Below, piece by piece: positions 26,751-33,104 of a DNA stretch of 64,000 nt. Origin of the DNA: Octopus vulgaris. Its lineage: Eukaryota. Each line of letters starts with the position of its first letter. The stretch's first letter is position 1. The position numbers and the translations under genes were made by a program. The DNA lies in contig OX597840.1 of the NCBI GenBank assembly GCA_951406725.2, positions 3,410,001-3,474,000 of the forward strand, in the 5' to 3' direction. The notes under the pieces are model-generated. The model was not told the DNA's origin. It searched no databases and saw nothing but the letters and a program-made list of their open reading frames with translations.

Positions 26751-26829
<79 letters not shown>
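26751..26829. repeat. (GATA)n microsatellite at the 3' junction of the Tx1-like element
   Basis: Pure GATA run directly abutting the element 3' end. Confidence 0.95.
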
Positions 26830-26830
<1 letters not shown>

Positions 26831-27132
26831 CTTTCTTTTATTAGCCACACAGGGCTGAATACAGAGGGGACAAATACAAATGCAGAGCTTTTCTTTTCGA
26901 GGGTGGAAAAAAATAAAAATGTAAGATTGCGATCAAAAGGGATCGAGAGGAGGAAAAAAAAAGGAAAAAAAAGAAAATCGTGTATCACAGAAATAATGGT
27001 GTAAACATTGATATAACAAGATTGGGTTCATCCGTGGGAAGAAAAGCCTACAGAAAAGACCACGGGAACCCCAGTCAGGGAGGAAATAAACACATGAGGT
27101 CAAAAATGCTCTCTTTCTTTCTTTTTTACGAT

Positions 27133-30100
27133 CTACAGGATCATGCTCAAAATGGTTTCGTTACTAGCACGCACCATCTTTGCAACATTCACCCATCTTT
27201 TATTGAATCTTTCGCGAGACAAAACTTCCCTCTCCATTCTCACCTTCCTTTTCAAGTGGTACTTGAAAAAGTTGATGAGCGAATGGCCAGAGAGGTAAGT
27301 GTTTGTCTCTAATCCTTTCGCTCGAGTCCACCACACACATTCTTTCACCATGGCCACCAGTACGATGAAAACTGCCTTGCCTTCCCGGTTGAGGGAAGGG
27401 GGCGGAGCAATTCTCACGATAGACTCGGCCGATAGGCGGATTCGTCCCACACGTGACAGCAGCCGTTCGGCATAAGCCCACAGGTCGGAAATGGTTGGAC
27501 ATTGCACGAGTGCGTGCAGAACGGTTTCGTCGCTCTGACCGCATCTCGGGCAAGTCGGTCCAGTGTGTCTGGAACCGTGTCTGTAGAGCTTATCCCGAAC
27601 AGGTAATGCTTCTCGATAGCACTGCCAGGCCAGGGATCTTTGGTGATTGTTCATAGGTCCCGGCCCGAAAGTTGTCCTGAACAGGCGGGTCAGGTGTTCC
27701 TCGTCGACGCCCAGACTCTGCCCGAGTTCGTCGTCGCACCTCCCCTCCACTAATCCTCTATAGAATGCCTTTGTTGTGATGGAGTCGCACAAGTTCGATC
27801 CCGGACGGCAGAGTTGCTTGAGAGCAACGCGACACTCACGGTGCCATTCGCCTAGCCTCGGTCTCTGCTTGATCCATGACTGTAGTTCGTCCAAGGAGAC
27901 GAGCTGCGGGAAAGCGCGCCGCACAAAAGGCGACCACCCCTGTTCACCGTTGTCTATGAAGCGCCGGAGATGTCGCAGTCTCAGCGCATGTCTGCGCATC
28001 ATCAACCACGGCATGCCCAGCCCTCCATTTAGCGGGTGTTGGCAGCAAATGGATCGCCTGACCATCGGAACGTTTCCCTTCCACAAGAAGCGGAAGAGTA
28101 TGCGTTCCAGTTTGGTGATGGTAGGGTCGGGACAAGGCACGACGGTCAGACGGTACTCGATGACGGATGCGATGTACGCGTTCGCCACCTCCGCCCGACC
28201 TTTTAGGGATAGCTTTCTCTCAGTCCATTTCTGGGTGAGAGTAGCCACCCTAGTCGTTATCTCGCCCCAGTTCTTCTCCATTTGGAGGTCCGGTCCGAAC
28301 CAGACCCCGAGCAATTTAACCGGTCCGTCCGTCCAGCGTCCCACGATGGAGACGCTGTTGGACGGCATGGGCTTGCTTCTCCAGGTGCCGAGCCGCAAGC
28401 CCACTGACTTTTCCCGGTTAATTTTTGCTCCCGTTACCGCTTCGTATTCTTTCAGTGTCTCGCCGACCAGCTCGATGTGCTCGTAGCTCGACACTATGAC
28501 GGTGACGTCATCCGCGTATGCAGACACGCTCCTCCCGCATCCCAGCCCTCGTGGGATGCCCCTCAGCGTCGCCAGTTTCCGCAGTAGTGGCTCAAGAGTC
28601 AGTACATACAGCAGCGATGAGAGGGGGCATCCTTGACGAACCGAACGCATGATGTTAAAAGGTCTGGATAGATGACCATTTACGCGAACTACTGAGCGGA
28701 TGCCGCTGTATAAGGCAGCGATCCAACTGCGGAAAACTGGACCGAAACCAGCCGCTTTGAGGACAGCCTCCAAGTAGTGATGGTCTACCCTATCGAAGGC
28801 TTTTGATTGATCCAAATTGATCAGCGCCCCACCCATGCCAGGATTTTTAACTACCCTGTCTATGATGTAGCGCATCAGATGGAGGTTGTCATGAATACTT
28901 CTACCCGTCACGGCGCATGTTTGCGCCTTGTCGATTAGTTTCTTGATGACAAGCGCCAACCTCTCGGCTAACACCTTGGCCAAAATTTTCAAATCTGCGT
29001 TGAGCAGAGTGATGGGCCTGAAATTATCTATGACGTCCCCCTTGTTTGGGTCTTTCTTGATCAGTGTCACTGCTCCTCGCTTTACAAAAGCAGGAATACT
29101 CCCGTTCTGCTGCCAGTTGCAGTAGACAGCTGCCAAGACGCCTCCAAACAAGTCTGGCATATGAAAATAAAATTCGTAGGGCAGACCATCCAAGCCTGGT
29201 GACTTGTCTCTCGCGCAGCCTACCATCGCATCCTGTACGTCCGCAGCTGTGATAGGCTTTTCACAAGACTCCACCTCCCTTGCTGAGAGTCGTGGCAAGG
29301 CATGCAGGTAGGCACTAAAGTCCACTCTGCTTTCTGACTCACCACTTGTCCCAAACAGTTGGGTGAAGTGTTGTTGAAAAACCCCACACATCCTTTTAGG
29401 CTCGAGTAATTCGCGCCCCTGTTCATCTATAAGAGACTTGATGGTGGCTCTGTTGCCTCGTTGCGTCTCCACCACTCGGGCCTCTTGGGCGGCTCCAACT
29501 CCTTCGTTCCTCAGAGCACGCATCCTAGCTCTGACAACGCATCCCTCGTGTTTGGCGTTGAGGTGTTGGTCGAGGGCCAATCTCGCCGCCAGTACGTTGG
29601 ACGCGATGCCAGTTCTAAGTGCCTCTTCTAAAACCTTAACTAATTCTCCCTCTACTCTGTTTCGGTCTAATGCTAGGGCTCTACTGTATCTGACTGATTC
29701 TGCTTTAATCGCTTTTTTTAGGGAATACCACCATCTGTTGTTGATGATGGTACCCGTCAAAGCTCTCTTAACTAATGTGCTGATCCGGTCCCTGTAAACC
29801 TGTCGTGCTGTAAAAGACGCGTTCAGTTTCCAGTAACCAGGACCCTGCCTATGTGTCTTATCTAAGTCAAGTGTACAAGTCACAAACTTGTAATCTGTGT
29901 AACTGACTATATGAAATTGTGGACAACCTACACTATTTTTATCTATTGTCCTACAGAATACTCTATCTAAGTATGATCTGGACGACCCGATGCGGTTACT
30001 CCATGTCCACACTGGCACATTCGGGTGGTCTAGTCGGTACCTGTCAGACAGTTGGAAACGTCTGAGCAGGTCTTTGAGGCATTTGCATCCCCTTCTATTG

Positions 30101-30570
30101 CTATCTCTGCCCACGTAGTCTAGATGCGTGTCCAGGGTGGCATTCCAATCCCCCACTAAAAGTAAAGGACGAGACGTTCCCATGAAAGACTCTAGACGTC
30201 GAAAGAAATCTGGTCGGCCTGTTAAGGACGGAGCATAAACTGCTATCAGTCGAAAAGCACACTCATTGCTGCCATCGACATCCAAAACGACCAGCCTACC
30301 CTCCGGGTCTAGGAAATTTGCTCTTACTTTGAGATCCAGACTCTTCCGGATAAGCACCGCGGTGCCACCTCCGCCCATTCTCGGTAGACACGGAGAAAAA
30401 TAAATGTTGAAATGTGTACCGAAAATGTGCTGGAGTGCCCGCAAGCTGTGGAGTCTGGTCTCACTGATGGCTATGATATTCAGATTTAGTGACTTGATGT
30501 CATTTAACAGGTAGCCTTGTTTCCAAGGCGACCCCAAGCCACGTACATTTATACTACCTATTCTGAGCAT
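27133..30570 (-). CDS. Retrotransposon ORF2: APE endonuclease, reverse transcriptase and C-terminal CCHC finger (1145 aa from first ATG)
   Basis: Uninterrupted frame. APE motifs GSINVRGL, ISET, VGDWNA, YLDRVF; linker GPGYWKLN; RT motifs KSPGLDGLP, FRPITLLNADLKILAK, LDQSKAFDRVDH, VRQGCPLS, AYADD; C-terminal CPRC-x8-H-x4-C. Confidence 0.95.
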   Translation of the reverse strand: MLRIGSINVRGLGSPWKQGYLLNDIKSLNLNIIAISETRLHSLRALQHIFGTHFNIYFSPCLPRMGGGGTAVLIRKSLDLKVRANFLDPEGRLVVLDVDGSNECAFRLIAVYAPSLTGRPDFFRRLESFMGTSRPLLLVGDWNATLDTHLDYVGRDSNRRGCKCLKDLLRRFQLSDRYRLDHPNVPVWTWSNRIGSSRSYLDRVFCRTIDKNSVGCPQFHIVSYTDYKFVTCTLDLDKTHRQGPGYWKLNASFTARQVYRDRISTLVKRALTGTIINNRWWYSLKKAIKAESVRYSRALALDRNRVEGELVKVLEEALRTGIASNVLAARLALDQHLNAKHEGCVVRARMRALRNEGVGAAQEARVVETQRGNRATIKSLIDEQGRELLEPKRMCGVFQQHFTQLFGTSGESESRVDFSAYLHALPRLSAREVESCEKPITAADVQDAMVGCARDKSPGLDGLPYEFYFHMPDLFGGVLAAVYCNWQQNGSIPAFVKRGAVTLIKKDPNKGDVIDNFRPITLLNADLKILAKVLAERLALVIKKLIDKAQTCAVTGRSIHDNLHLMRYIIDRVVKNPGMGGALINLDQSKAFDRVDHHYLEAVLKAAGFGPVFRSWIAALYSGIRSVVRVNGHLSRPFNIMRSVRQGCPLSSLLYVLTLEPLLRKLATLRGIPRGLGCGRSVSAYADDVTVIVSSYEHIELVGETLKEYEAVTGAKINREKSVGLRLGTWRSKPMPSNSVSIVGRWTDGPVKLLGVWFGPDLQMEKNWGEITTRVATLTQKWTERKLSLKGRAEVANAYIASVIEYRLTVVPCPDPTITKLERILFRFLWKGNVPMVRRSICCQHPLNGGLGMPWLMMRRHALRLRHLRRFIDNGEQGWSPFVRRAFPQLVSLDELQSWIKQRPRLGEWHRECRVALKQLCRPGSNLCDSITTKAFYRGLVEGRCDDELGQSLGVDEEHLTRLFRTTFGPGPMNNHQRSLAWQCYREALPVRDKLYRHGSRHTGPTCPRCGQSDETVLHALVQCPTISDLWAYAERLLSRVGRIRLSAESIVRIAPPPSLNREGKAVFIVLVAMVKECVWWTRAKGLETNTYLSGHSLINFFKYHLKRKVRMEREVLSRERFNKRWVNVAKMVRASNETILSMIL

Positions 30571-30612
30571 GTTCCGATAAAAGTGCAAAAAAGGAAAAGG
30601 AGAGAGAAAAGG

Positions 30613-32412: not shown

Positions 32413-32970
32413 TTATTGTCGTTCTTGGTGACGGCTGTGGTGTTGGTAGTATTTGTAGCATTGACGGCACGGTCTTTGGTGGCGGTGATGGTGATGTTGG
32501 TGTTGTTATTGGTGGCAATATCTTTAGTAGGGATAGCAGTTTTAGTAGCAGATTCTGCCATGGTGTTGGTGGTGGTGGTGGACTCACTGATGGTGTTGAC
32601 GGTGCTTGGCCTTGCGACCTTTGTTTTGTATTTGTTGCTGTTGGTGGTGGTGGAGTTGTCGAGGTTCGGCGTATGCTAACAGAGCATCCTGTTTTTCTGT
32701 TTCTCCGTCACGCTTGACTTGCAACTCAGCCTCGTGGTGGTCAGTGGCCATTTTGGAAATAAAATGGCTAAATGAAACCACGAAGGCTATGAGAATTTTT
32801 CTTTTAAATTTTGCCCACAAGGGGCAAAATTTTGTGTCGATATTTATCAAAGGTTTACAGTGGATGTTGTTGTACAACTTTTAAGCAAAAAATGTTTGTC
32901 AATATACACTTTTAAATAGTCAAAATAAATGATTACCTTCGGAGCCGAAACGACATCACATCCGTCAGTC

Positions 32971-32972
<2 letters not shown>

Positions 32973-33021
<49 letters not shown>

Positions 33022-33033
33022 GTAGATAGATAA

Positions 33034-33104
<71 letters not shown>
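32973..33104. repeat. (GATA)n microsatellite at the 5' junction of the Tx1-like element
   Basis: Near-pure GATA run directly abutting the 5'UTR, same orientation as the 3' tract. Confidence 0.95.

Follow-up and report, generated by a model that had tools for sequence, protein, structure and literature searches.

The window analyzed here is a stretch of 64,000 nucleotides from Octopus vulgaris (G000:C27:3410001-3474000, where G000 is the 2.8-Gb genome that was searched), and its minus strand carries a 6143-bp element located between two (TATC)n tracts (26830-32972), which is a full-length copy of a retrotransposon family referred to here as family A. Together with two sister families, B and C, family A forms a strongly GATA-specific young clade of long interspersed nuclear elements (LINEs), and this association is real, making (GATA)n a new target for a known type of repeat-seeking retrotransposon. 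Both flanking tracts read (TATC)n on the sense strand of the element, and the likely cause of this one-orientation placement is insertion into tracts that already existed (Table 1).

Open reading frame 2 (ORF2) of the element gives three matches above the Pfam cut-offs, namely Exo_endo_phos for the apurinic/apyrimidinic endonuclease (APE) at aa 6-210, RVT_1 for the reverse transcriptase (RT) at 508-756, and zf-RVT at 978-1031. The nearest solved structure is human L1 ORF2p (PDB 8sxt and others; E 1e-59 over residues 4-857), which has the same APE and RT motifs, while R2 proteins match more weakly (E 1e-20). The traits of the L1 group, which are an N-terminal APE, an RT, a C-terminal Cys-rich domain and a separate ORF1 upstream, are all present, and 5′ truncation is variable (25 distinct breakpoints in family A) as opposed to a near-constant 3′ end. 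ORF1 contains a single zf-CCHC match that is weak (E 0.0014-0.0028, slightly below the Pfam cut-off). A CCHC zinc knuckle in ORF1 is a feature of the Tx1 clade and is absent from the ORF1 of human L1, an element which is promiscuous and poly(A)-tailed, whereas family A is neither. Judged by these sequence traits, family A is an L1/Tx1-group LINE and a candidate member of the Tx1 clade. Its 5′ untranslated region (UTR) likely holds an internal promoter, and Rfam gave no match near threshold to a 5′ ribozyme or other known RNA in 26600-33200. In the 3′ UTR an AATAAA signal stands a few bases before the end, after which the sequence passes directly into TATC, and the last ~45 nt are common to the sister families and to an abundant short interspersed nuclear element (SINE).

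Similarity searches of the genome returned at least 767 candidates for the 5′ end, at least 1882 for the 3′ UTR and at least 3211 for the end of ORF2, of which the best 40 were scored in each case; for an RT stretch, at least 150 matches were scored, all at least 95% identical in protein. Family A is a young family. Comparison of the window copy with 22 other full-length copies, 98.9-99.8% identical, qualifies the first-pass annotation of the window, which had described a complete two-ORF element: ORF2 is indeed open over its full length of 1145 aa, but ORF1 is frameshifted and His227 of the endonuclease is replaced by Tyr. From the ATG at 32751, ORF1 meets a stop after 55 aa and its frame is open again from 32412, the break being a 1-nt insertion at 32661 that has no counterpart in 21 of the 22 other copies. 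The Tyr at ORF2 residue 227 (base 29892) is likewise private to the window copy, with His in 41 of 41 motif matches at loci L111-L150, among which some copies are counted twice through overlapping loci. This residue aligns with H230 of human L1, a catalytic/structural histidine, and the L1 mutant H230A shows zero retrotransposition (PMC1950540 Table 1; papers are cited in this text from excerpts). ORF2 is open in 7 of the 22 other copies and many copies are frameshifted, and many of the ORF breaks in family A could be assembly errors. The window copy itself is damaged, having neither an intact ORF1 nor an intact endonuclease active site, for which an assembly error is again a possible cause.

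Table 1. Coordinates of the family A copy, its flanking tracts and a second clade member in the window
Feature	Position	Strand	Remarks
3′ flanking (TATC)n tract	26751..26829	-	~20 perfect units, perfect (ATAG)19.8 as read on the + strand; target plus any RNA-derived tail
3′ UTR, 303 bp	26830..27132	-	AATAAA at 26837-26842; without poly(A)
ORF2, 1145 aa, open	27133..30570	-	APE endonuclease, RT, zf-RVT
Codon 227 of ORF2	29890..29892	-	Tyr in window copy; every other copy examined has His
ORF1, one weak CCHC match	30613..32751	-	Broken in window copy; 712 aa in copy L115
5′ UTR, 221 bp	32752..32972	-	First ~55 nt common to sister family C
5′ flanking (TATC)n tract	32972..33104	-	~33 units, two variant units; (AGAT)33.2 on the + strand; likely pre-existing target
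3′ fragment of sister family B, second GATA-clade member in the window	38598..38824	-	Then ~26 TATC units

Sequences flanking the insertions

Flanks were scored by a strict rule, at least three TATC units within the 20 nt before a position. By chance, this rule is satisfied at 1055 of 399,200 strand-positions (0.26%) when 20 stretches of 10 kb are taken arbitrarily from the genome, and at 0.72% in the part of the window that lies beyond the element. The same-orientation (TATC)n at both ends and the lack of poly(A), which the first-pass annotation had already pointed out, are confirmed. All 30 loci derived from the 40 best 5′-end matches, the window copy included, have their full-length 5′ end in a sense-strand TATC tract, and 29 of them pass the strict rule. 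Among the distinct internal 5′ breakpoints of family A (loci L001-L150), 20 of 25 pass. As a sample independent of the ends, 40 of the 150 RT matches were taken, 20 new ones from the upper and middle ranks and 20 from the bottom. The automatic count on these copies was 9/39, as alignments to an older subfamily had broken off within its variable ORF1 region; when the copies were traced to their real 5′ end, with junctions judged by eye, a TATC tract was found in 36 of 40 (8 of 11 for the truncated copies of this sample). Of 36 breakpoints in sister families B and C, 28 pass the strict rule and none passes in the opposite orientation, although these breakpoints were mostly seen as neighbours within arrays and are therefore not independent. 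The bias is already present in the youngest copies (at least 99% identical). Since the 5′ ends, truncated ones included, adjoin TATC in one orientation hundreds of times above background, TATC is the target and not only a tail; the first-pass annotation would have taken it for a mere tail had most copies shown non-GATA 5′ flanks, and in the three family A samples (30/30, 20/25 and 36/40) most are in TATC.

At the 3′ side, 159 of 166 ends have at least two TATC units in the first 20 nt and the other seven are followed by degenerate TATC-like sequence, the register of TATC being nearly constant. No A10 run was found in 93 3′ ends, and these ends thus differ from a canonical L1 tail. The 5′ tracts are long and imperfect, with variant units that differ from locus to locus and with gradual transitions into TC, TA or TGTC repeats of the host, and GATA tracts without any element are common in the genome. 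It is because the 5′ tracts are long, imperfect and locus-specific that we infer their existence before insertion, as the first-pass annotation had proposed for the 5′ repeat of the window copy, and this explanation is further supported by the flank bias at 5′ ends and the fixed orientation.

A target-site duplication would be hidden in such a repeat. Rare flank 20-mers are shared by both own flanks in 9 of 65 insertions, compared to 46 of 4160 cross pairs, which may fit long duplications or older higher-order repeats. At loci L113, L119, L121, L124, L129, and L178, variant repeat motifs occur on one side of the element and again on the other, with offsets of ~140-240 bp; they are possibly very long target duplications, inseparable in this material from older higher-order repeats.

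Related families and head-to-tail arrays

The ORF2s of the three sister families, A, B, and C, are 80-83% identical, and these families share TATC tracts. As controls from the same genome, searches with three outside homologs led to families D, E, and F, for which 20 + 20 loci were fetched. In trees obtained with a quick IQ-TREE search, and with FastTree after ten distant or partial rows were dropped, all with rows that bear no clade names, A, B, and C form one clade (support 99-100), F is its sister, and D and E fall outside. Families D, E, and F are equally young and show no GATA bias. TATC was found at 0 of 12 detected 3′ ends of families D and E (57% identity). Family D always sits at the same position of a repeat that is not a microsatellite, and an identical 17 bp borders it on either side in eight 5′ and nine 3′ flanks (loci L191-L197, L201, and L209, e.g., L193:1760-7160). 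It is thus a second, apparently strictly site-specific family; its target repeat, which may be Penelope-like, gave no match in Rfam. Family E shows 16-20-bp duplications at unique sites. In family F (71%), (ATT)5 or more follows the 3′ end in 15 of 15 cases and (ATT)4 or more precedes the 5′ side in 7 of 15, several of the others being interrupted by other repeats, and the family forms long 5.87-kb head-to-tail arrays with (ATT)5-6 spacers (L211-L230; G000:C4:93.80-93.83 Mb, C47, C50). Given the tree and the lack of GATA bias in these related families, the GATA association is a property of one clade and not of a microsatellite-rich genome, in support of the GATA-specific lineage that had been suggested from the window alone. 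ORF2 matches at ~5.28-kb spacing were also seen (G000:C9:59.20-59.25 Mb and C5:29.18-29.20 Mb), which suggests that a family-E-type element is arrayed head-to-tail there with no microsatellite between its copies. In one background stretch (L104:8700-10000), a diverged 5′ end, 75% identical to that of family C, stands directly after 16 TATC units, and more GATA families therefore exist.

Copies of families A-C follow one another head-to-tail in seven regions of 20-50 kb, all in the same orientation and with only TATC tracts between them, the largest mixed array being ~45 kb. The median length of the spacers separating neighbouring copies is 140 bp (n=83), compared to 36 bp for 19 background tracts, and 6 of the 83 measure only 8-18 bp, which is what occasional jumping of the RT onto a short (UAUC)n end of the RNA would produce. 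Some array units repeat the same truncation, which is therefore attributed to recombination (unequal crossing-over) or assembly duplication.

The SINE-like repeat mentioned above, which occurs at L095-L110 and three times in the window, is very abundant, with 11 motif matches over the 200 kb of background sequence, and its tail can be aligned with the terminal ~45 nt of families A, B, C, and F. TATC comes next in 1 of 26 matches, and many matches are followed by one common sequence, as if inserted into their own kind. A partnership between this SINE and the LINEs is likely.

Choice of the target tract

We consider it fairly probable that the family A copies were inserted into existing (TATC)n/(GATA)n tracts, in one orientation, by target-primed reverse transcription in which the end of the RNA pairs with the target. 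Transcription from the internal 5′ promoter would read past AATAAA into the flanking repeat and yield an RNA ending in (UAUC)n, and a loose or semi-specific nick by the APE domain would open the GATA strand of a tract. The freed GATA 3′ end could then pair with the (UAUC)n of the RNA and prime reverse transcription, a pairing that would account for the constant register at the 3′ side and for the missing poly(A). Joining of the second strand would leave a short duplication hidden in the repeat (16-20 bp in relatives), and, with target left on both sides of each insertion, later copies of any sister family could stack into arrays. In each microsatellite family the repeat beyond the 3′ end is the same as the repeat at the 5′ side, and annealing between RNA and target has been proposed for SART1Bm and R1Bm (PMC7265360).

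In L1-type endonucleases, a hairpin between strands B6 and B5 probes the minor groove (PMC1950540). This hairpin is identical in families A, B, and F, nearly so in C, and different in D and E, and the GATA families also differ from D and E by a 3-residue insert in another endonuclease loop. The hairpin loop as a sufficient cause of GATA specificity is ruled out, as family F has the same loop yet an (ATT)n target. A possible, though doubtful, extension of RNA-end pairing is that the landing site is written in the RNA itself, in that a nearly shared endonuclease nicks loosely and the read-through repeat, (UAUC)n in families A-C or (AUU)n in F, picks the microsatellite by pairing. If this were true, an element would owe its specificity to the site of its previous insertion, this specificity could change while the protein stayed the same and could be reprogrammed by editing the RNA tail, and long tract duplications would enlarge the element's own target, building the 45-kb arrays.

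Several points weigh against insertion by RNA-end pairing into existing tracts. The (UAUC)n end of the RNA is predicted from sequence. Five of the 25 family A breakpoints fail the strict rule: one has a spacer of two units, two have degenerate tracts, one has a 16-nt templated fragment behind the tract, and at one the alignment breaks off into a sister family. In addition, 4 of the 40 RT-picked copies have no 5′ TATC tract and adjoin a SINE, unrelated DNA, a piece of another family, and a (TC)n tract, respectively. Many truncated copies were found through array neighbours and some array units are identical duplicates, so that the counts are not all of independent insertions. Neither an empty allele nor a paralogous empty site was found, the search for which the first-pass annotation had recommended: read runs X21-X23 contained almost none of the element at 95% likeness (3, 25, and 5 reads) and showed no empty allele, the joints of contig run X1, possibly the source of the genome itself, join SINE pieces in the flanks and showed none either, and the 3′ flank of the window copy has no paralog in the genome beyond a 200-bp repeat. 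Finally, the N-terminal endonuclease regions of A and F are merely ~63% identical, and protein changes outside the hairpin could therefore explain the target switch without RNA pairing.

Given this degree of endonuclease identity, a serious rival, if a rather unlikely one, is that targeting is due to the endonuclease alone, which would nick (GATA)n specifically, the 3′ TATC being target DNA and not a copy of RNA. Tx1L-EN nicks almost solely its own target in vitro (PMC1950540), the fixed site of family D with its 17-bp duplication demonstrates that the group can be strictly site-specific, and both the hairpin and the 3-residue insert separate the GATA families from D and E. On the contrary, family F combines the same hairpin with another target, a loop sequence alone confers no specificity (PMC1950540), and AATAAA lies so near the end of the element that cleavage would fall within the repeat, yet poly(A) was never inserted.

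It is very unlikely that the element has no target preference and makes both tracts at random sites, with the 3′ tract arising as a tail and the 5′ tract through slippage or jumps of the RT onto (UAUC)n. That no empty site was seen agrees with this explanation, and the ability of the RT to jump is shown by the short spacers and by small pieces of templated sequence at some junctions; however, self-made tracts do not fit the length of the 5′ tracts, their locus-specific variants and their gradation into host repeats, nor the frequency of element-free GATA tracts, and the accumulation of three families in the same tracts over tens of kb is unlike random insertion. Least probable of all, and only barely credible, is loose insertion followed by sorting or artefact (survival, recombination or mis-assembly between GATA tracts), as the repeated truncated units, which point to unequal crossing-over or assembly duplication, and the many frameshifted copies, with ORF2 open in 7 of 22, would suggest, but the bias of the youngest copies, the mostly distinct breakpoints, the fixed orientation and the equally young D, E, and F without GATA bias all speak against it.

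Known repeat-seeking elements and consequences for the host

Among the elements named by the first-pass annotation as precedents, Mutsu targets 5S ribosomal DNA and Dewa targets tRNA arrays. The other targets that it named, those of Kibi, Koshi, and Keno (U2 snRNA for the last), are confirmed by the excerpt of PMC4494074. Kibi at (TC)n and Koshi at (TTC)n are microsatellite-targeting Tx1 elements of teleosts (PMC4494074), and the crocodilian Tx1-1_Crp group targets (TTCC)n/(TTTC)n (PMC4494074; PMC3812793). Target-specific Tx1 families have been recognized by one sequence type in more than 20% of flanks (PMC4494074), and family A, with its 5′ flanks in TATC at 36/40, 20/25, and 30/30, lies far above this value. 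Like Kibi, Koshi, and Tx1-1_Crp, family A is an APE-type Tx1/L1-group LINE with a preference for a microsatellite. Unlike them, its target is (TATC)n, which is not a pure pyrimidine repeat, the (TC)n or (TTC)n of Kibi and Koshi being represented by 1 of the 40 RT-picked copies in (TC)n; it also resides in a mollusc and in mixed multi-family arrays. Waldo, Mino, Dong, and SART1Bm/R1Bm, which belong to the R1 and R4 clades, resemble family A as non-long-terminal-repeat elements aimed at short repeats, with clades and targets that differ. Waldo targets (ACAY)n, Mino (AC)n, and Dong (TAA)n (PMC3812793), (TG)n is also a target in other clades (PMC4640811), and SART1Bm inserts with a poly(A) tail (PMC7265360), which family A lacks.

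The repeat annotation of Octopus vulgaris includes 80 L1-Tx1 families, 13 of them recently active, with 421 insertions (PMC13282606), and family A may be among them; the excerpted text mentions no target specificity and the supplement, as far as excerpted, does not contain “GATA,” “TATC,” or “target.” In the excerpt of PMC8967140, L1-Tx1 is merely listed as expanded, and the excerpts of PMC4758252, PMC5786205, and PMC9115989 hold nothing on family A, the RTE element of PMC9115989 having been rejected as a match for belonging to a different clade. Searches of the open literature found no GATA-targeting Tx1 or L1 element, and a Repbase or Dfam entry with such a target may exist.

With these families, (GATA)n joins the known targets of the L1/Tx1 group, as probably do (ATT)n and one fixed position within a dispersed repeat. 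How APE elements target microsatellites at the molecular level has been described as not well understood (PMC3812793), and young sister families with open ORF2s and different targets in one genome render the question of endonuclease versus RNA pairing testable by swaps. For the host, GATA microsatellite loci are insertion hotspots that are able to grow into LINE arrays of tens of kb, which is relevant to marker design, assembly, and studies of somatic insertion.

Elsewhere in the window, the family B fragment at 38598-38824 adjoins (TA)n-rich sequence, and not TATC, on its 5′ side, and a degraded RT remnant of an unrelated LINE, with 24% identity, lies at 14275-14814 on the minus strand.

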